From a virus (Duplodnaviria > Heunggongvirae > Uroviricota > Caudoviricetes): DNA of 20,111 nucleotides. The DNA lies in the IMG/VR virus record IMGVR_UViG_3300037384_000074, positions 1 through 20,111 of that record; one strand, 5' to 3'. Made by a program: the position numbers and the translations under genes. Of the stretch, positions 3,704 through 18,798 are shown piece after piece. A model generated the notes under the pieces. The model did no database searches. It saw only the letters and a program-made list of their open reading frames with translations, and had not been told where the DNA came from. Each line of letters starts with the position of its first letter. Position 1 is the stretch's first letter.

Positions 3704-4230
3704 CAGAAGAAGAAGCTAAATTTGCTGACCTGCAGAACCAATTCCTCGCTAATATGGAATTGGTTCACTTTGATCAGTTCAATTATGAGTGTGAAAAGGC
3801 AATATTTGATGATACTCAGGGAGCGTTCTCAAATGCCCTGAGTATCACGCGACACAACCTTAAGATTGGATCACTTGCCGCAAATCAGGTAGGATACGAT
3901 CGACGAGTAATCAGTATTGCTGGTATTGACGGTTGTCTTTTCAACCCAGTCTTAGTATATTCATCTGAGGATACTTCCGTTCTGGATGAGGTCAATGTCT
4001 CATATCCAGGACTTAAGGTTAAGATCAAGAGATCGAACACGATTCGTATCCGATATCAGACATTTAATGGTGAGCGAGTTGCTCAGACATATAATGGGCT
4101 TACAGCTCGAGCGATCCTACATGCAATAGATCAGTTGGATGGGGTCTGCTTTATCAATAGAGCAAATAGAATTCACCGCGAACGTGCATTACGTCAATGG
4201 AAAAGGTTTAATAAGCACAATGCAGCCTAA
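3700..4230 (+). CDS. Peptide deformylase homologue, predicted catalytically inactive
   Basis: PDF fold motifs LAANQVG, FNP, SYPG, KIKR, TARAIL..ID.LDG are recognisable. EGCLS reads EVNVS and HEXDH reads HAIDQ. Confidence 0.8.
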   Translation: MTEEEAKFADLQNQFLANMELVHFDQFNYECEKAIFDDTQGAFSNALSITRHNLKIGSLAANQVGYDRRVISIAGIDGCLFNPVLVYSSEDTSVLDEVNVSYPGLKVKIKRSNTIRIRYQTFNGERVAQTYNGLTARAILHAIDQLDGVCFINRANRIHRERALRQWKRFNKHNAA

Positions 4231-4873
4231 GTATAGATCTACCAAGCGATACGGCCATAATCAGGGTCTATCATCCACATTCCGTCAGTGGCGCGCTGAA
4301 GGAACACACTGTAAACTGATTCATGGATATGCACTATCTGTTGAACTAGAATTTGGCACCAATGAACTAGATGAGCGGAATTGGGTTCAAAATTTTGGAG
4401 GTCTCAAGGAAGTCAAGAACTATCTTACTTGGCTTCTTGACCACACTACTGTGGTTGCAGAAGACGATCCTGAAATCGATACTTTCTATGAACTTGATGA
4501 AAAGGGATTGATTGCTCTACGTGTGATCCCTGATGTTGGATGTGAGAAGTTTGCCGAACACATCTTCTATGCAACACTTGCGCTGCTTGATATGAATATT
4601 GTCTCAGATCGAGTTAAGTTGATGTCCGTTCGAGTATGGGAACATGAAGCTAATTCAGCGAGCTTTATCAATCCAATTCTAGACCTACCGGAAGCATCTA
4701 GAAACTGGATCGGTAGTCTTCACAACGCGTTTAAGCAGAATCGTGCACTATTCACTGCTCGAGATTATGAGGTTCTCGATCCTAAGCAATGGGAATCTGA
4801 TATTGAAGTTGCAATCGACCCAGTATCTGCACTAATCGTTGACTACGGTAGGATTGCAGGAGATCTTGACTGA
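4220..4873 (+). CDS. queD: 6-carboxy-5,6,7,8-tetrahydropterin synthase
   Basis: CKLIHGY (CxxxHGH variant), WVQNFGGLK, LDHT, GCEKFAE, VWEHEANSA. Start at ATG 4220, overlapping the PDF end. Confidence 0.88.
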   Translation: MQPKYRSTKRYGHNQGLSSTFRQWRAEGTHCKLIHGYALSVELEFGTNELDERNWVQNFGGLKEVKNYLTWLLDHTTVVAEDDPEIDTFYELDEKGLIALRVIPDVGCEKFAEHIFYATLALLDMNIVSDRVKLMSVRVWEHEANSASFINPILDLPEASRNWIGSLHNAFKQNRALFTARDYEVLDPKQWESDIEVAIDPVSALIVDYGRIAGDLD

Positions 4874-6276
4874 TGTTTGGTCTGAATACTATTGTCGGGA
4901 AATCATACTTTAAAGATGCCGGCGAAAAACTTTACGTAACTTCAATCTTTTATTCAATCCAAGGGGAAGGGCCTCTACGAGGACGTTCGGCAGTATTTGT
5001 TCGACTCGCAAAGTGCAATCTTGGATGCTCGTGGTGTTTCCATGGAAACACTTGGATAACGATGTCAAACGGTTCACGTAAGCGGATTAAGGACATCAAG
5101 ATTGGTGATGAGGTGGTGTCATGGAATGAAGATGCTAATCGATTCGAATCTAAAAAGGTAAGTTATGTTCATCCTACACGTCATGTGGATGAAATCATCC
5201 GACTTCGTACGGGCAAAAGCAACAATCCTAACGAATTAGTATATGTGACAAAGGAACATCCATTCCTTGTAAAAAATAAGGGTTGGGTCAAGGCTGGCGA
5301 TTTGCAGGAAGGTGATGTTCTTCTTCACTTCTCACCATCGGATCGAATGACAATATCCGAATTCATCCATAATGGTGATACCGTTACTAGTGTTGAAGTA
5401 ATTCAGAAGCCAACATCATTTAGTGGCTCCGACGGTAAGGCATGGATCAGACTTGCAGGCGGATCTAAGGATATCGAAGTATACAACTTTGAAACTGAAG
5501 ATAACCACACATATGTTGCAAATGGTAAAATTGTTCATAACTGTGATGCTTTCTTCGAAGATGGGGATTGGCTAACAATTCCTGAAATTATCGAACGAGC
5601 GGGTAAGGAAATCGACAAATATTTCGAGAATCTAGGCAGGGAGACTCCGGATTGGGCTAGTAATAGTGAAAACAGTTGCCGGGAAATTGCGTTCATCCTT
5701 ACTGGCGGCGAACCTACATTGCAGAAGATCAAAGATCTTCTCAATTGGGCATCACTAGAATATAAGTGGACTCAGATTGAATCGAACGGCATTCTCGAGC
5801 CATTAGTCCCTGACAGTACAATTGTAGTAGTATCTCCAAAGTGCATGGAAAAGGTTGACGTTTCCGAAGGGTTTAAGCGTTATATTCCAACTGGATATCT
5901 CAATCCGAACCCGAAGACTCTTGAACGCGCAAGTGTTCTCAAGTTTGTGATGGAAGATCAGCCAGATTTTGACTCTCCTTATCAGACTGTACCTGAGTGG
6001 GCTCATCAGTGGCGTCGAGATACTGGTCGAGATGTTTACGTTTCACCGATGAATATCTATAATCGTGAGCCTAAGAAAGCCCAAGAGATTCGTTCGGGCA
6101 AGAATAAAGCAAGTCTAGAAGAGCGGTCTCTCTATGATGAAGTTGTGTCATTTTGGGAGCCTGGATTGTTTGATATGGAAGCCAACCAACGGAACCATGA
6201 ACATGCTGGCAACTATGCTATCCAGCATGGATTCATATTCCAAATGCAGTTACATCTCTTCTGCTCGAAAGCGTAA
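4873..6276 (+). CDS. queE: 7-carboxy-7-deazaguanine synthase (radical SAM) containing an intein
   Basis: YSIQGEG...FVRLAKCNLGCSW|intein|CD, LTGGEP, IESNG, VVSPK and C-terminal QMQLH. The spliced product would be 298 aa. Confidence 0.9.
   Translation: MFGLNTIVGKSYFKDAGEKLYVTSIFYSIQGEGPLRGRSAVFVRLAKCNLGCSWCFHGNTWITMSNGSRKRIKDIKIGDEVVSWNEDANRFESKKVSYVHPTRHVDEIIRLRTGKSNNPNELVYVTKEHPFLVKNKGWVKAGDLQEGDVLLHFSPSDRMTISEFIHNGDTVTSVEVIQKPTSFSGSDGKAWIRLAGGSKDIEVYNFETEDNHTYVANGKIVHNCDAFFEDGDWLTIPEIIERAGKEIDKYFENLGRETPDWASNSENSCREIAFILTGGEPTLQKIKDLLNWASLEYKWTQIESNGILEPLVPDSTIVVVSPKCMEKVDVSEGFKRYIPTGYLNPNPKTLERASVLKFVMEDQPDFDSPYQTVPEWAHQWRRDTGRDVYVSPMNIYNREPKKAQEIRSGKNKASLEERSLYDEVVSFWEPGLFDMEANQRNHEHAGNYAIQHGFIFQMQLHLFCSKA
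5035..5541 (+). mobile_element. Mini-intein (169 aa, no endonuclease domain) in QueE
   Basis: Begins CFHGNTWITM (block A), TKEHPF (block B TxxH), VYNFETEDNHTYVAN (block F), ends IVHN followed by the +1 Cys. Removal restores CxxxCxxC. Confidence 0.95.
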
Positions 6277-6362
6277 AATAATACATGATGTCACAATACC
6301 CTGAAATGAACATTAACTTGAGGGATTGGTACATCCCTCCTCCGCCACCTAAGAAAGAACAA

Positions 6363-7082
6363 ATGTCAAACAACACATCAAACAATACTCCAAGTATTTC
6401 CGAGACAATCACTGAACGTATGGTCAATAAGGGCCATCGCTTCTGGGCAAGTGATAACGTATCAGACTTCATATACGATGATGAAGAGAAGCAGGCTCTA
6501 ATCGATGAAGCAACCGCTAAGTTCGAAGCTGTGTTGGATAGTCTATTGATTGATAGGCACAATGACCCGAACAGTAGAGATACTGGTCGTCGCATGGCGA
6601 AGATGTATATCAACGAGCTGTTCGAAGGGCGATTTACTCCTCCTCCAAAGATCACAGCATTTCCAAACGATGACGTTGAAACTCGTTTTGCTGGAATGTT
6701 GATTGCAACGGCTGAACTGAAGTCGATGTGTTCGCATCATCATGCCCCAGTAACAGGCAAGGCTTGGATCGGTATTCTTCCTTCAACGAAGGTTATTGGT
6801 CTCAGCAAGTATGCTCGTTTAGCTCAGTGGTATGCTCGCCGAGGAACTCTTCAGGAAGAGTTGACAAAACAGATCGCTGACGGTATTCAGAAGCATACTG
6901 GATCACAAGATCTCGCTGTCGTTGTTGTCGCTGAACATGGTTGCTGCACAAATCGTGGAATTATGGCAAACGATAGCTCAACATGGACGAGTGTATTGCG
7001 TGGCCAGTTCTTCAATCCATCCGTGAAACAGGAATTTTTTAACCTGATTCAGGGCGGCCTTAACAAGTTCCAGTGTAATTGA
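6363..7082 (+). CDS. folE: GTP cyclohydrolase I
   Basis: DPNSRDTGRRMAKMY, CSHH zinc ligands, GLSKYARL, LQEELT, EHGCCTNRG. The start is uncertain: the ORF is open from 6285, but ATG 6363 is preferred because the upstream part is a hairpin/poly-Pro tract. Confidence 0.92.
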   Translation: MSNNTSNNTPSISETITERMVNKGHRFWASDNVSDFIYDDEEKQALIDEATAKFEAVLDSLLIDRHNDPNSRDTGRRMAKMYINELFEGRFTPPPKITAFPNDDVETRFAGMLIATAELKSMCSHHHAPVTGKAWIGILPSTKVIGLSKYARLAQWYARRGTLQEELTKQIADGIQKHTGSQDLAVVVVAEHGCCTNRGIMANDSSTWTSVLRGQFFNPSVKQEFFNLIQGGLNKFQCN

Positions 7083-7089
7083 GGGAATT

Positions 7090-7437
7090 ATGAGATTCAT
7101 TTACGTTAAGTTTCAGCGCGAGGGGATTCACTGTTATCCCCTCGCTGGCACCGATCCTAAGTTGGCTGATGTGAGCTTTCTAGCTCATCCACATCGCCAT
7201 ATGTTCTGGTTCGAAGTATGTATTGAAGTGTTTCATCAAGATCGCGATCTGGAATTTATCCAATTTAAGCGTTGGCTTGAAAGACTTTATAGTCAGGATA
7301 TTCTCGAGCTTGATAATCAGTCTTGCGAGATGATTGCTGATTCCTTGATGGAAAAGATCCAGGAACGATATCCAAATCGTTGTATTCAGATTGACGTGTC
7401 TGAAGATGGCGAGAACGGAGCTATCGTTACAAACTAA
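7090..7437 (+). CDS. dpdL: QueD-paralogue T-fold protein, DpdL-like (putative CDG decarboxylase)
   Basis: FLAHPHRHMF matches LxxxHRHxF; RDLEFIQFK and SCEMIA...VSEDGENGA are QueD-like; sits directly after folE with its own GAGGG RBS. The motif assignment is recalled from the phage deazaguanine literature. Confidence 0.7.
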   Translation: MRFIYVKFQREGIHCYPLAGTDPKLADVSFLAHPHRHMFWFEVCIEVFHQDRDLEFIQFKRWLERLYSQDILELDNQSCEMIADSLMEKIQERYPNRCIQIDVSEDGENGAIVTN

Positions 7438-7443
7438 TAAATA
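7436..7443 (+). promoter_or_regulatory. T4-type late promoter (AATAAATA)
   Basis: One mismatch to TATAAATA, immediately before ATGATG at 7445; no RBS in between, so the mRNA is probably leaderless. Confidence 0.55.
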
Positions 7444-7444
7444 G

Positions 7445-8038
7445 ATGATGACTCCATTCGCTCAATTTATTACAGAAGATACTTACACTTCGTGGGTATT
7501 CAAATTAGATATGTCGTTCGAGAATCGTTTCTACACGTATCTTGAACGTAATCTGTGGGGATTTCGCGGAATATCTAGAGCGTTTACTTCGACTGGACCG
7601 GTCGCTCGTAAGAACGAGGGGATTGAGTCCTTTAGAGATAAACACTCTACGGGCAATTACGATTCAATCCAATTATATCTAAGCAAAAATTTGACTTTCT
7701 CGTTTGGAGTTTTACCTAACGGATTGATAGTTTGTTATGATTTGGTCGGAGATGGTGCTTGGATATCTCCGACCAAAATGACATTGAGACAGCTTGTTGC
7801 TGATCTACAAGAATTCGGATTCGGCAAGCCAAAAATGACTCGTGAAAAGGCTGATCCTAACCCGTTCAAAATTGGAAATTTGGTTCGGTTTAGAGAAGGT
7901 AATAAATCACATATCATATATAAGGTCACTAAACTTGAAGGTGATATTGTATATGGATACGACGTTACGAAAAGTCCGGACGTGAAATATTTCCCTGATG
8001 TCCTAATGGCGCATCATTCTCGTCTGATCAAGAGTTGA
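7445..8038 (+). CDS. Hypothetical protein with a capsid-targeting-like N-terminus and a C-terminal SH3/KOW-like segment
   Basis: 197-aa ORF beginning M(M)TPFAQFITE; C-terminal FKIGNLVRF...YKVTKLEGDIVY beta-rich pattern. Confidence 0.7.
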   Translation: MMTPFAQFITEDTYTSWVFKLDMSFENRFYTYLERNLWGFRGISRAFTSTGPVARKNEGIESFRDKHSTGNYDSIQLYLSKNLTFSFGVLPNGLIVCYDLVGDGAWISPTKMTLRQLVADLQEFGFGKPKMTREKADPNPFKIGNLVRFREGNKSHIIYKVTKLEGDIVYGYDVTKSPDVKYFPDVLMAHHSRLIKS

Positions 8039-8068
8039 CATCTATCGACGTTCATAGGATGATAAATA
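8035..8068 (+). promoter_or_regulatory. Overlapping sigma70-like (TTGACA-17-GATGAT) and late (GATAAATA) promoters
   Basis: TTGACA 8035-8040, GATGAT 8058-8063, GATAAATA 8061-8068, upstream of the GGAG RBS of the 8088 ORF. Confidence 0.5.
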
Positions 8069-8087
8069 TCATCAACTGGAGATCTAG

Positions 8088-8276
8088 ATGATGAAGTCCT
8101 ATGATGAATATCTCGTGGAGTCGAAGAACCGTCAAACTGAAATGCATGATTGGATTGCAAATCAGGTTGACAACACTGAGAAAGCTCACGACGAAATTAA
8201 GAAAGAATTCCTGAAGAAGTACGGAGCGAAAAACGCAAAGTTCTTCGATAAGGTAGTCAGCGAAATCGTTGACTGA
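8088..8276 (+). CDS. Small hypothetical protein with a capsid-targeting-like N-terminus
   Basis: 62 aa; GGAG RBS at 8078-8081; begins M(M)KSYDEYLVE; predicted helical and charged. Confidence 0.75.
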   Translation: MMKSYDEYLVESKNRQTEMHDWIANQVDNTEKAHDEIKKEFLKKYGAKNAKFFDKVVSEIVD

Positions 8277-8404
8277 AATATACGACCTGCCACGCCTCTG
8301 ACGCAAGCGCACCAGGTGGGTCCCTTATAAGTGAAATGACACGGCTAGCCCCTCTGCACTAAGGTGTACGGGCAAGTCTTCTATTTAAATATGAAAGACT
8401 AACA

Positions 8405-9289
8405 TTGCTAAACTTTTGCGCTATCTGCCCAACCCCTCATCTCGATCTGGTGAAGGGTCGGAAGGCCAATCTAACATTGGCACATCTGGTCGATACTGAC
8501 CCTGAATACCGTGAATGGTATAAGAACAATCCCACTGAAATCCACATCATGGATAATTCTGCATTTGAGTTGAATCAGCAGGGATTGCCGTTATTTGATG
8601 GCAATCGTCTTGACGATCTAGCTTTGTCGGTGGGTGCAAACTACGTTGTAATGACAGATGCTCCTGGCCAGTCATCTGATGTTACAGAAAACTTTGCTCG
8701 ATTTCAAGGTAAGAGACTCAAGAGTAAGGGACTAGGTACCTTCTTTGTGCCTCAGAGTTACCGCGGCAAGATCGGCGACTTGATCAATTCATTCATCTGG
8801 GGACTAACTAATCCCGACATCGACTATGTTGCTCTAAGCATCCTATCTGCTCCAAATGCATTCACTCGTTCAGACATTTCAGATAATGCTAAAATGATGA
8901 CAAGGTATCTTTCTCGATATCATTTCATGCGATTGCTTGAAAAGGAAATCAAGGAAGAGTTTGGAATTAGTGCGAGATCTCTGAAAGAAAAGCATAACAA
9001 GAAGATCCATTTTCTTGGGATGACCGAAGGTCCCAACGAAATTGAACTAATGTCACACGTTGACATCCCAATTGACACATGGGATAGTAGTGCTCCGATG
9101 TGGTATGGTCTTCGTGGTCGTAAACGATTTGACCCTAATTCGGTTACTGGTTTGCCAGACGGCAAGTATACTGAACATGTCGATTTTAACTATAGAACAA
9201 ATATCGAGGAGGCTAGAAATATAGCTCTCGACAACCTCGAATATATTGACAACTTAGTACAGGACTATAATGACAGAGTCAACCCTTGA
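8405..9289 (+). CDS. dpdA: TGT/DpdA-like TIM-barrel deazaguanine transferase (subfamily uncertain, DpdA3-like suspected)
   Basis: IMDNSAFE (TGT DSGGFQ-like), KIHFLG, DTWDSSAP (archaeal TGT DxFDS-like); located within the folE/queD/queE cluster. Confidence 0.72.
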   Translation: MLNFCAICPTPHLDLVKGRKANLTLAHLVDTDPEYREWYKNNPTEIHIMDNSAFELNQQGLPLFDGNRLDDLALSVGANYVVMTDAPGQSSDVTENFARFQGKRLKSKGLGTFFVPQSYRGKIGDLINSFIWGLTNPDIDYVALSILSAPNAFTRSDISDNAKMMTRYLSRYHFMRLLEKEIKEEFGISARSLKEKHNKKIHFLGMTEGPNEIELMSHVDIPIDTWDSSAPMWYGLRGRKRFDPNSVTGLPDGKYTEHVDFNYRTNIEEARNIALDNLEYIDNLVQDYNDRVNP

Positions 9290-10145
9290 TAAGGGTCTCG
9301 ATTGAGACCCAATCGGAATCTGTTAACCTCACTGAGCATGGAAATTCAGGTACCATTTTTCCAGTTCTTCGAAATATTTTCTGACGTATAGCTCCAGGAC
9401 TTACCTTTAGGTGTTTAGCCAAATCTGGAAACACTTTGAAAGATATAATACTTCTACTAGAAGTATTATATAGAATCAGGTTGTGATTAGAATTTTCACG
9501 TTTGAAAGTTCTCGACCATTCACTGAATAATTTACGTGATTCGAGAGTTTTCTTGTGGTCACTATTAATAGGATGAGGCTTTCCTAGCCGAGATAGACGA
9601 ATATTCTCTCGTCGTTCAGCAGAACAGGGTCCCCTAGGCTTTCGTAGTTTTGATTTTGATTCTTCCGATCGAAGTCTGCTAGTGTTTGGTTTGAAACCGT
9701 TCTCGATAAGAAAGCAAATTCGATCCAAATCATTAACATTACAATTTGTTAGTTTGTCGGAAACTTCATTATAGAATTTTATTCTCTTTTGACCCCTTGT
9801 GGGATGATTGATTGTGAAGTTTTCGCGATACATGCGTCTTGCAATATCATATGTTGTTGCATTACTATATCTCAACATTCCTGTTGAGGAACAATTCATC
9901 ATTGCTAAAGCTTTTACCATTTGGAAATATTCTCTAGTATTAGGAATTAGCATTTTAACTAGTAAACGATGGGCGATGTAATGTTCTTTTGCTGTAAACT
10001 TAACTAAGTTCGATAAATCGTTAGATCCACCCATCGATTTAGGAATAATATGATGTCGCTCATGGTAACGGCTTTCAGTGGTTTTAATTGATCTAGACGT
10101 ACAGAGATCAAAATAGAATTTAGTGTATTTGTTAGCTAAAAACAT
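9279..10145 (-). mobile_element. Free-standing HNH homing endonuclease with NUMOD3-like repeats (Mob-like)
   Basis: ERHHIIPKSMGGSNDLSNLVKFTAKEHYIAHRLL HNH motif; RSEESKSKL and SAERRENI NUMOD3-like segments; antisense to its neighbours and AT-rich. Confidence 0.88.
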
Positions 10146-10171: not shown

Positions 10172-10450
10172 TTGAATATTTATAAATTTAAAGAGGACGA
10201 AGTACTTAGAGAGGTAGCAGAATATCTTGAAAAGACTTATAAATCTCATTACGTAGACAATAATAATCGTCAATTGATGGAAGATATTGTTGATGAAGGC
10301 GATGCTATTCCATTTTGTAGATGGAATAGCATCAAGTACCTTAGGCGATATGGTAAAAAGAATGGATTCAATAGGGATGACCTTTTGAAATCCTTACACT
10401 ATTGTATTATTATGCTTGGTGTAACAAAAGATAATAAACCTCACAATTAA
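10172..10450 (+). CDS. DUF3310-family protein (T7 gp1.7-like putative dNMP kinase)
   Basis: YKFKE...HY...FCRWNSIKYLRRYGKKNG...DLLKSLHY matches the DUF3310 GNxxKYxxRxxxK...DLxKAxxY pattern; AAGGAG RBS. Confidence 0.75.
   Translation: MNIYKFKEDEVLREVAEYLEKTYKSHYVDNNNRQLMEDIVDEGDAIPFCRWNSIKYLRRYGKKNGFNRDDLLKSLHYCIIMLGVTKDNKPHN
10177..10184 (-). promoter_or_regulatory. T4 late promoter TATAAATA for the minus-strand HNH gene
   Basis: Plus strand reads TATTTATA inside DUF3310 codons 2-5; about 32 nt upstream of the HNH ATG at 10145. Confidence 0.65.
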
Positions 10451-10462
10451 GGCCTACAATTA

Positions 10463-10546
10463 ATGACAATGGTCAACATTGCATCTGACCAGTCTGGGTC
10501 AGTGCTTTCAAAATTCAAGTTTGAGGATGTACAGCCAAATGCATAA
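10463..10546 (+). pseudogene. Orphaned original 5' end of the dUTPase gene (MTMVNIASDQSGSVLSKFKFEDVQPNA*)
   Basis: 27-codon ORF ending in QPNA, the motif that precedes IDLRL in the downstream dUTPase; CAGCCAAATGC is duplicated at 10532-10542 and 11253-11263. Confidence 0.8.
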
Positions 10547-10569
10547 ATATCTCGAAGGAGAATTTATGT
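10541..10569 (+). promoter_or_regulatory. RBS-sequestering hairpin with an embedded late promoter (CATAAATA 10542-10549)
   Basis: GCATAAAT(A)TCTC-GAAG-GAGA-ATTTATGT forms a 12-bp stem with one bulge that covers the GGAG RBS and the start of the GTG codon. Confidence 0.75.
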
Positions 10570-11209
10570 GGCAAATTATCGAAAAATCTGGGAAGAAGCT
10601 AATGGGCCCATTCCGGTAGACGACAGTGGACGAAGTTTCGAGATCCATCATATAGATGGTGATAGAGAGAACAACGCAATAGATAATCTTCAATGCGTTA
10701 GTGTGTTCGACCACTTCTTTATTCATCATGAAAAGGGCGATGTTGCTGCTTGTCTTTTGATGATATATCGTCTTGAAATGGAAGATGACCCACTTTTCAA
10801 AATTTTGAAATCGGAGATATCGAGAGAGTCAAATCGTAGACGACTGGCTAATGGAACGCATAATTTTCTGAAACCTGAACATCATCACAAAGTTAAGGTC
10901 ACCCAGAAAAGATTGTATAGTGAAGGTAAACACCATTTTTGTAATGGGCAGACTGAAAGGGGTCAGAAGTCGGCTCAGTCACGTTTCAAAATGTGGAAGT
11001 CTGGAACAGATGATGAATTCTTTAGCCTCCTAGGAGGATATAAGTTATATCGTACATTTAGACTCAAAAATGGAAAAATGCATCAAGCCCCGAGTAGTAT
11101 AGTGATGCAGGCAATTAATTACCGGTTTGATGGCGAAGAAAGTAAAGTTGTCGCTGCGATTCAACGAATATACGGAACAGATGATTACACATATTCTATC
11201 GGAAAATAG
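10568..11209 (+). mobile_element. Free-standing HNH homing endonuclease, I-TevIII-like
   Basis: N-terminus NYRKIWEEANGPIPVDDSGRSFEIHHIDGDRENNAIDNL closely resembles I-TevIII as recalled; has NGTHNFL and EGKHHFC repeats; GTG start after a GAAGGAG RBS. Confidence 0.88.
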
Positions 11210-17656: not shown

Positions 17657-18313
17657 ATGGCTTTTGGCGATAAAAACAAGAAAAATCCGTTCGTCAAGAA
17701 GGATGCTGATGAGACAAAAAATGACGCCCCAGACAAGAAGGGCGGCTCATCAGATCAGCCTACTGAAGGTAAGTCAGATAATAAGTCTGACGATAAAGAA
17801 AAGAAATCCCCACCTCAGCCAGGTAAATCTGGGTCAAACAAGGGTGAGGGGATGGAGATCAAAGACAAGGTCAAAGTTGACCTAGAGCCAACTTACAAGT
17901 TGAAGGAAGATATCGAATTTATCTTTGATAATGACCTTTCGGATATCAGTGAACACGCTGATATTGTTGAGTGGTATGAGCGGGAAGCTCAGGAATTGGG
18001 TGAAGATATTTCATTCACGACCAGGCTCAAGCGTAAAGCTTTGATGAGACGTTTCAAGCAGCGTCTTAAGATCTCTCGTGAGAGATCGGTCAATCGTAGA
18101 GCTACAATCGATCGCATTGCGAATCGGGCTCGTAAAAGCGCCATTTCTACACTAAAAGCGAAGTTTTCAGGTGGTAAGAAGACATCAGATCTCTCGAATT
18201 CTGAAAAGAATCGTGTTGAGAGAATGGTTCATCAGCGCAAGAATTCAGTAATTCGTCTTACCAGAAAGCTGATCAGAAAGAAGCGTGAACTAGAGCGGGA
18301 TCGCCTAAAGTGA
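17657..18313 (+). CDS. Late hypothetical protein, possibly a prohead-core-like virion protein
   Basis: Low-complexity K/D/S/G N-terminus, acidic middle with (I/L)xE sites and a very basic helical C-terminus; late promoter upstream. Confidence 0.6.
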   Translation: MAFGDKNKKNPFVKKDADETKNDAPDKKGGSSDQPTEGKSDNKSDDKEKKSPPQPGKSGSNKGEGMEIKDKVKVDLEPTYKLKEDIEFIFDNDLSDISEHADIVEWYEREAQELGEDISFTTRLKRKALMRRFKQRLKISRERSVNRRATIDRIANRARKSAISTLKAKFSGGKKTSDLSNSEKNRVERMVHQRKNSVIRLTRKLIRKKRELERDRLK

Positions 18314-18798
18314 TTCCGTTTTCAGTATTTTCCGAGAACGTAAAGAAGAAATTCGTAGGGCTTTACTTTACAGAAGAAAGCACGGATGCTCTGCGAAATT
18401 GGGCATTGATGGCTGGTTTCGACTTGACAACTAAGTTTAACGGTAGTAAACAGTCAGTTCTAGAATTCGATTTCCATACTACAATATTCTTCACCAACAA
18501 TTATGTTGATATCGCAAATGGCGAATACAAAATTGAGCCATTCACACTCTCGTTGTCACATTTCGAATTACTTGGACATGAACGCAATATTCCAGTGTTG
18601 AAAATTAACAGTGATAATTGGACACTTCAGTCTCTACGTCAGGGATTCGAAGAAATGGGATTTAGAGATGAGTGGCCAGAGTATAAACCACACATTTCGC
18701 TATCATATAACTGGGATGGCAGACCTAGAATGCAGAATCTAGAAGTCCCGTTGATTCATGTAGTGGCAGACCGAATTAAGGTTGAGGACGCAGACTAA
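18310..18798 (+). CDS. acb1: 2H phosphoesterase, T4 gp57B/Acb1-like (anti-CBASS nuclease candidate)
   Basis: Two HxT/S motifs (FHTTIFF, YKPHISLSY); N-terminus resembles gp57B (F..FS...GLYF.EES.DAL); similar length. Confidence 0.7.
   Translation: MIPFSVFSENVKKKFVGLYFTEESTDALRNWALMAGFDLTTKFNGSKQSVLEFDFHTTIFFTNNYVDIANGEYKIEPFTLSLSHFELLGHERNIPVLKINSDNWTLQSLRQGFEEMGFRDEWPEYKPHISLSYNWDGRPRMQNLEVPLIHVVADRIKVEDAD

Follow-up and report, generated by a model that had tools for sequence, protein, structure and literature searches.

The stretch of DNA considered here (termed the window) is the first 20.1 kb (20,111 nucleotides) of the 136.5-kb IMG/VR virus record IMGVR_UViG_3300037384_000074, which is estimated to be 75% complete, has a G+C content of 44% and, according to Pfam and PHROG scans, carries a T4-type replication module across the window. 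Two open reading frames (ORFs) on the plus strand, termed here gene 1 (7448..8038, 196 amino acids) and gene 2 (8091..8276, 61 amino acids), lie between a gene resembling dpdL (7090..7437) and a gene for a protein with a predicted tRNA-guanine transglycosylase (TGT) fold (8405..9289). Each begins with a ten-residue leader peptide, or tag: MTPFAQFITE (7448..7477) in gene 1 and MKSYDEYLVE (8091..8120) in gene 2. An earlier note on this DNA had drawn attention to these N-termini and had compared them with MKTYQEFIAE, the start of T4 ipII and ipIII; both leaders were confirmed, with starts at 7448 and 8091, and the T4 start was read directly from NC_000866 and is given in PMC8442874. In T4, this peptide is a capsid targeting sequence (CTS), which is removed by cleavage and which causes any protein fused to it to be packaged (PMC8442874; capsid-targeting work of Mullaney and Black 1996, as cited there). 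The patterns of sequence conservation described below suggest that the two ORFs are probably internal-protein-type (ip-type) cargo genes of a distant T4-like phage, situated in a polymorphic slot of a 7-deazaguanine cluster.

The gene 1 leader ends in I-T-E (residues 8-10), a putative cleavage site for a protease of the gp21 type, and the gene 2 leader ends in L-V-E at the same residues. With the first ten residues removed, gene 1, which continues DTYTSW..., is predicted to give a mature form of 186 residues with a pI of 9.3, and gene 2, which continues SKNRQT... and consists of the leader followed by a conserved helical domain of about 45 residues, a mature form of 51 residues. Both ORFs open with a doubled ATG, in-frame ATG codons being present also at 7445 and 8088. 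The identical 10-mer that had been reported at the two starts is indeed there: TAGATGATGA occurs in exactly two copies in the window (7442-7451 and 8085-8094), where shuffles lead one to expect 0.11 and yield two copies in 1 of 100 cases. It looks like a by-product of TAG plus the doubled ATG; at the corresponding site the closest relative of the window (L012, a 76-kb Logan contig) reads TAGATTATGA rather than the shared 10-mer.

Gene 1 is an orphan: no homologue was found by tblastn of phages, by a word-indexed search, among IMG/VR loci or by exhaustive phmmer. In searches that covered 5.8 billion clustered and 1.8 billion representative proteins, the sole match was short, repeat-like and confined to the C-terminal 60 or so residues, which resemble a small NPFKIG-type beta-barrel repeat. 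An AF2 model computed from the single sequence (pLDDT 31) is unusable, and the structure and feature neighbours of the protein in the Atlas are weak (TM 0.35 or less) and KOW/NusG-like.

The two leaders belong to a larger family. Matches to the pattern M-x2-[FYW]-x2-[FYW]-[ILVM]-x-E were sought in a six-frame translation of the whole record and in triplet shuffles of it; there are nine in the genome versus 0-1 in the shuffles, and for eight of these nine a stop codon lies within two codons upstream, the ninth (95404) lying 37 codons past a stop. The tag is not particular to the deazaguanine cluster, inasmuch as seven of the nine tagged genes are scattered elsewhere in the genome, outside the window. 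The payloads of these other genes are mutually unrelated: they include a Ser/Thr kinase resembling T7 gp0.7, two DUF6934 paralogues, weakly PARP-like proteins and proteins without any match. A position-specific scoring matrix (PSSM) trained only on the seven tagged genes of this record that lie outside the window assigns 24.7 bits to gene 1 and 12.8 bits to gene 2. Applied as a control to T4 (NC_000866, 62-78 kb, 121 Met positions), the same matrix picks just ipI (17.7 bits) and ipII and ipIII (20.3 bits), all other positions scoring below 8 bits. The codons that encode the tag differ synonymously between the nine genes, and the peptide is kept where the mRNA leader is ordinary, as in gene 2 and in most ORFs that occupy the corresponding slot of other phages without an abutting promoter-like box; thus it is the peptide, not the DNA, that is conserved. 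The record also encodes a gp21-type prohead protease (PF03420 Peptidase_S77, 129 bits; G000:C1:120149-120598, minus strand). Roughly 1 kb away, a 334-residue ORF (G000:C1, near 121656, minus strand) starts with MGKKFKQFQEE, which scores 18.9 bits when one residue after the Met is skipped; judging from this start, the ORF may encode a scaffold or core protein with the same address.

A late-promoter-like box, AATAAATA (7436..7443), abuts gene 1, ending 4 nucleotides (nt) before the ATG at 7448 and overlapping the TAA stop codon of the dpdL-like gene. Gene 1, when started at this ATG, thereby conforms to a rule: eight of the nine tagged genes have NATAAATA (once ACTAAATA), followed by exactly four bases and the ATG, and they have no ribosome-binding site. 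Gene 2 is the exception, its box, GATAAATA (8061..8068), being followed by a 9-nt spacer, a GGAG ribosome-binding site (8078..8081) and then the ATG. In L012, a gene 2 homologue at the same place has a CTAAATA box at the same distance, the GGAG and the ATG. Genome-wide, 8 of the 40 ATAAATA sites have an ORF-opening ATG exactly 4 nt downstream, whereas 0.7 would be expected (P 4e-7), and seven of the eight ORFs so defined carry the full tag. The eighth (G000:C1 102791-103321, also L005:1292-1822), a tenth gene with this arrangement, begins MLSFKEYTKL, thus lacking Glu at position 10, and has a weak PARP-like H-G-T region. As to the claim that a late promoter precedes each of the two genes, the boxes are present and the non-random spacing speaks for their being functional in the family, but the ATAAATA core alone is at chance level in the window (8 sites versus 5.2 +/- 2.2 expected). 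In T4 the late box precedes the start of transcription by about one helical turn (PMC2988020), so a box only 4 nt from the ATG would imply that transcription begins at the AUG or right next to it; gene 1 would then be expressed from a leaderless transcript rather than from one with an ordinary late leader. A sigma-70-like site (TTGACA-17-GATGAT, 10/12 matches; window 8035-8063) overlaps the late-type box of gene 2, which might therefore also be expressed before the late stage. No intrinsic terminator was seen in 6900-8600, and the intergenic sequence 8270-8410 folds no better than shuffles (z -0.69).

The genes that flank the two tagged ORFs are supported as a 7-deazaguanine cluster. Upstream, queD, queE and folE (4139..7082, plus strand; PTPS, GTP_cyclohydroI and Hint domains, phrog_2076) correspond to the precursor pathway, with FolE matching Pfam GTP_cyclohydroI at 138 bits, QueD matching PTPS at 51 bits and QueE matching phrog_2076 at 143 bits. 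The dpdL-like T-fold gene that forms the upstream border of the slot (7090..7437, plus strand) encodes a protein of 115 residues, which matches phrog_17812 (E 1e-33) and, weakly, QueD, and which has HPHRH in place of the CxxxHGH of QueD; in this last respect it fits the account of DpdL, a QueD paralogue without CxxxHGH in genomes without QueC, given in PMC10516641. The protein at the downstream border (8405..9289, plus strand; 294 residues) has no Pfam or NCBIfam match; its AF2 model, however, reaches a pLDDT of 92.7 from a 22-sequence alignment, and, among PDB entries, Foldseek ranks archaeosine TGT and bacterial TGT highest for that model (E 5e-8, probability 1.0, TMq 0.55-0.59), so that, on the strength of the model, it is a candidate DpdA-type DNA transglycosylase. 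By tblastn it occurs in just four phage records, none of them among the phages named in PMC10516641. In its content the cluster resembles phage 7-deazaguanine clusters with DpdL and DpdA3 (the Cellulophaga phage phiST type; PMC10516641), having FolE, QueD, QueE, a putative QueD paralogue that lacks CxxxHGH and a distant protein with the predicted TGT fold; scans of the window showed no QueC, the rest of the genome not having been searched for it. Internal proteins are not mentioned in PMC10516641 (0 occurrences). The QueE-like radical SAM gene (window 4873-6276) is split by a Hint/intein domain at residues 55-225 or so; at the syntenic position L012 has an unsplit gene of 298 residues, without a recorded Pfam match, and has NUMOD3 endonuclease genes close by.

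The interval between the dpdL-like and TGT-like genes (the slot) was surveyed in 85 syntenic T4-like loci, 80 of which, mostly short contigs, were fetched from IMG/VR by way of the TGT-like protein as the best of at least 527 relatives; genome-wide tag counts were made for two phages. All 80 IMG/VR loci share the gene order (gp46-def-queD-folE)-dpdL-[slot]-tgt-dcd-gt2-gp45-gp44-gp62-regA, and in 80 of the 85 loci the dpdL-like gene is directly upstream of the TGT-like gene. The gap between the two is below 100 nt in about 60 loci, and in every one of the 20 loci where it measures 228 nt or more there are plus-strand slot ORFs with tag-like starts (e.g., MQPFKEYISE, MKTFKEISEE, MKSFKQLSEE, MLGFKEYISE, MKKYADFINE, MKTFKHFTTE and MDSFKNYIDE). 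These inserts range from 61 to 320 residues and include evident repeats (a group of 86-91 residues, a group of 75-76 residues and the gene 2 family), apart from which no family common to the slot payloads was detected, one Pfam match (DUF3363) being above threshold. At a PSSM threshold of at least 12 bits, 10 of the 72 Met positions in the slot score versus 4 of the 4913 outside it (547 kb of related loci), an enrichment of about 200-fold (Fisher p 2e-16). Among the four outside scorers, one belongs to an ORF that immediately precedes the TGT-like gene in a locus without dpdL, and two are internal Met codons of the TGT-like gene (L072:4480 and L080:5622, reading MAPFKQYIDTWD, 17 bits), which were rejected as false positives within a conserved motif of that enzyme (YIDTWDSS).

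A second genome, that of the cultured Rhizobium phage RHph_I1_18, has about nine tagged genes, two of them in the slot; the chance that two or more of nine tagged genes would fall there is 0.004 for this complete genome and 0.002 for the partial genome of the window. The initial pattern finds no match in the Rhizobium phage, owing to a His at position 7 or an extra residue after the Met; the nine or so genes emerge with the PSSM. Its dispersed tags follow M-I-[ST]-F-K-Q-H-[IL]-x-E, and tagged genes lie at positions 1866, 9112(-), 13120(-), 81503(-), 81937(-), 96838 and 130236(-) of MN988519, in some cases with the ATG 5-6 nt past a box of the TATAAATA or CTAAATA type. Cultured carriers of slot genes are this phage (EVB91_071/072), Vibrio phage D479 (VPHD479_0065) and Aeromonas phage Ahp1_CNU-2021 (Ahp1; AHP1_641); Ahp1 has a 70-residue ORF, starting MKTFDEYLAE, just ahead of folE. 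The content of the slot also differs between the window and its closest relative: where the window has gene 1, L012 has a DUF559 endonuclease gene on the other strand.

Gene 2 belongs to a family that can be followed from phage to phage. Its members in L012, Vibrio phage D479, L083 and L088 always bear the leader and always lie directly upstream of the TGT-like gene, homologues that are 72-80% identical retaining M-K-S-Y-x-x-Y-L-x-E; in D479 the homologue has 67 residues, starts with MKTFEQFSES and directly precedes the TGT-like gene. The domain has 12 invariant columns in a five-sequence alignment that extends down to 38% identity, and it is present in just 2 of the 80 IMG/VR loci. In the Rhizobium phage it forms the last 43 residues (49% identity, E 9e-14) of a 274-residue protein at the syntenic position (EVB91_070; L008:41144-41968), after which come genes starting MAKTYKEFIAE and MKSFKEFMEA and then the TGT-like domain; the macro domain that the GenBank label of EVB91_070 ('Appr-1-p processing enzyme') would suggest was not detected by Pfam or NCBIfam. 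A scan of IMG/VR for a wider family yielded no relatives, and a further ('longer') search gave only the Rhizobium protein. Among the contexts known, then, the gene 2 family, as delimited by sequence similarity, is found only in the slot between dpdL and the TGT-like gene. A predicted complex of gene 2 with the TGT-like protein scores 0.00, a value obtained without controls that permits no conclusion either way. The check that the earlier note had proposed, for co-occurrence with dpdA and dpdL in relatives, gave a positive outcome: tagged ORFs recur in the slot, and the gene 2 family is at home there; gene 1 itself, being an orphan, does not recur, and about three quarters of the slots are empty.

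Taken together, these features point to the following mechanism. The first ten residues would serve as a capsid targeting sequence that recruits each protein to the scaffolding core inside the prohead, where the gp21-type protease would cut after Glu10 (I-T-E or L-V-E), leaving a basic protein of 186 residues and a helical protein of 51 residues in the head; both would then enter the host together with the DNA. Expression of both is probably late, in gene 1 from a leaderless transcript and in gene 2 by means of its box and a normal ribosome-binding site. The payloads would most likely act early, in counter-defence or in host takeover, and one candidate role is the inhibition of nucleases that recognise deazaguanine DNA, by analogy with T4 Ip1, Ip2 and Ip3, which have their leader alone in common and each of which blocks a distinct GmrSD nuclease (PMC12373910), GmrSD nucleases being enzymes that attack glucosyl-hmC DNA (PMC12373910; PMC3012670). 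The likeness to the T4 ip system extends from the ten-residue leader of the same pattern, by which the T4 ip genes score 17.7-20.3 bits on a matrix derived from this genome, to the [I/L]-x-E ending of that leader, the gp21-type protease, payloads that share the leader alone, and a locus content that varies between relatives. There are also differences. The phage is very distant from T4, and no phage in the collection has a gp46 more than 39% identical to its own (38.6% for the closest, Rhizobium phage RHph_I1_18, and about 35% for the next, Stenotrophomonas phage DLP6 and cyanophages); unlike the T4 ip loci, this locus lies inside a 7-deazaguanine cluster and adjoins a transglycosylase-like gene; and, unlike the T4 ip genes, which have AGGA leaders, most members of the family here have a late box that abuts the ATG, an arrangement particular to this lineage. 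What is new is the location, namely tagged genes inside a deazaguanine cluster, in a slot conserved in other phages; no paper linking internal proteins or the targeting sequence to deazaguanine clusters was found in the literature searched.

Several observations weigh against the interpretation of the two ORFs as ip-type cargo, or against parts of it. The sequence of the protease does not reveal its cleavage specificity; the score of gene 2 is modest because residues 4 and 9 are Tyr and Val; the box core, as noted, does not exceed chance in the window; and gene 1, as an orphan, is backed as a conserved gene only by its tag and its promoter context. The 274-residue Rhizobium protein is itself leaderless, so the gene 2 domain can work without a tag. 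The slot is empty in roughly three quarters of related loci, from which it follows that deazaguanine genes do not need slot proteins. Finally, no nuclease dependent on 7-deazaguanine in DNA was found in the literature searched. The proposal that the proteins travel with the cassette as injected protectors of modified DNA is partly supported: the T4-type leader ending in [I/L]-x-E, the gp21-type protease, the deazaguanine neighbours and the co-occurrence in the slot speak for it, while the position of most tagged genes elsewhere speaks against it. By analogy with T4 such protection is a reasonable idea that draws some support from co-localisation, and it is treated here as an inference because the slots are mostly empty, because most tagged genes lie elsewhere, because the literature searched yielded no nuclease directed at deazaguanine DNA and because a region so rich in homing endonuclease genes may be a recombination hotspot.

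This last consideration leads to an alternative that agrees on packaged cargo while regarding its location as incidental: recombination would be frequent at the slot, where tagged cassettes are exchanged by way of the shared leader and the conserved flanks, and the targets of the payloads would be unrelated to DNA modification, as in general host takeover of the kind suggested by the kinase and the ART-like proteins that bear tags in other parts of the genome. The location of seven of the nine tagged genes outside the window, the lack of a detected common family or a known function among slot payloads, the predominance of empty slots and the local gene flux, with an endonuclease gene of the homing type replacing gene 1 in L012 and HNH, DUF559 and NUMOD3 endonuclease genes abundant in the region, all fit this alternative, which has a substantial but somewhat less than even chance of being correct. 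It does not account for the absence of tagged ORFs from the other junctions of the conserved module (tgt-dcd-gt2-gp45-gp44) over the 547 kb of related loci, nor for the fact that the gene 2 family holds its position although the TGT-like proteins there are only 38-44% identical to that of the window. At the opposite extreme, the slot may be a dedicated arsenal locus, in which tagged proteins are injected against undescribed nucleases that recognise 7-deazaguanine DNA and in which modification and protectors are inherited and exchanged as one module; this stronger version, argued from T4, appears unlikely on present evidence. Less likely again is that gene 2 acts as an accessory subunit or regulator of the TGT-fold transglycosylase or of the deazaguanine pathway, its leader being secondary or serving to bring the partner into the head. 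Its place immediately upstream of the TGT-like gene wherever the context is known, the occurrence of its domain as the C-terminal end of a larger slot protein in the Rhizobium phage and the 12 invariant columns maintained down to 38% identity would all make sense in those terms; its presence in only 2 of the 80 IMG/VR loci (the best of at least 527), however, indicates that the enzyme does not generally need gene 2, and all free-standing copies retain the leader.

Two further alternatives are more improbable still. One takes the shared N-terminus to be something other than a capsid address, such as a signal for sorting or degradation, or one bound up with the translation or stability of late mRNAs that lack a leader, as the eight genes that begin 4 nt past a late-promoter-like box without a ribosome-binding site might suggest; yet the peptide is kept alongside ordinary leaders in gene 2, in its homologues and in most of the slot ORFs from other phages, the codons vary synonymously between genes, the T4 ip genes combine AGGA leaders with the same peptide (shown in T4 to direct packaging), and a related peptide starts the 334-residue protein whose gene is about 1 kb away from that of the prohead protease, all of which makes such a signal a poor prospect. 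The other, which seems, if anything, still harder to credit, holds that gene 1 is non-functional, that is, a newly acquired or decaying ORF that follows a tag cassette by chance. It would explain why gene 1 is an orphan in protein collections of the size given above (the short, repeat-like match aside), why it is missing from the closest relative (L012) and why its structure models are of low confidence; but the region is tightly packed and the frame runs through 196 codons without a stop, the tag scores higher than that of gene 2, the box, four bases and ATG are arranged exactly as in the rest of the family, and orphan payloads are typical of ip-type loci.

If the two ORFs are indeed ip-type cargo genes, they resemble T4 Alt and other head-packaged enzymes in that they would deliver proteins with the DNA that act before phage genes are expressed. 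T4 Alt is targeted differently from the short-leader internal proteins, and, unlike Alt, gene 1 and gene 2 encode small proteins in which no catalytic domain is recognised. The injection of internal proteins is established for T-even phages, and all three internal proteins of T4 have recently been found to stop type IV restriction of modified DNA; the same address tag is now seen in a very distant T4-like lineage, where a variable set of tagged genes sits directly inside the genes that presumably make 7-deazaguanine DNA; this suggests, insofar as gene arrangement can, that injected proteins and modified DNA evolve together. Should the link be functional, the slot furnishes a list of candidate inhibitors, of several payload types and in part from phages of Rhizobium, Vibrio and Aeromonas that are in culture, and the payloads could be used to seek defence systems that sense deazaguanine DNA; should the arsenal-locus version prove true, the system would be a deazaguanine counterpart of glucosyl-hmC with Ip1-3 against GmrSD. 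Even if the link is merely positional, the principle of the ip locus, by which payloads are swapped behind a conserved leader at a fixed slot, would reach well beyond Tequatrovirus. The cultured Rhizobium phage RHph_I1_18, with its own tag family, would offer a practical system in which to study tagged proteins.

The remaining genes of the window place the slot in its wider setting. The T4-type replication module comprises genes for the gp55 late sigma factor, gp47, gp46, peptide deformylase, QueD, QueE (with its intein) and FolE; the 115-residue T-fold protein (phrog_17812), the two tagged ORFs, the 294-residue ORF and two HNH endonuclease genes; and a dCTP-deaminase-like gene, a pyrophosphatase, a GT2-like protein, gp45, gp44, gp62 and RegA. 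Between the TGT-like and dCTP-deaminase-like genes lie a DUF3310 ORF (10172-10450, plus strand) and the two HNH homing-endonuclease genes (9279-10145, minus strand, and 10559-11209, plus strand). Late-promoter-like boxes, TATAAATA at 10145 and CATAAATA at 10542, each followed by AGGAG, lie ahead of the DUF3310 ORF and of the second HNH gene, respectively. The TGT-like and DUF3310 parts are fused into one protein of 422 residues in the Rhizobium phage and are encoded by neighbouring, separate genes in L012. No Rfam match was obtained in the window. Farther downstream, an ORF of 162 residues (window 18310-18798) matches the anti-CBASS family Acb1 (PF23474, 49.7 bits, with a cut-off of 27).

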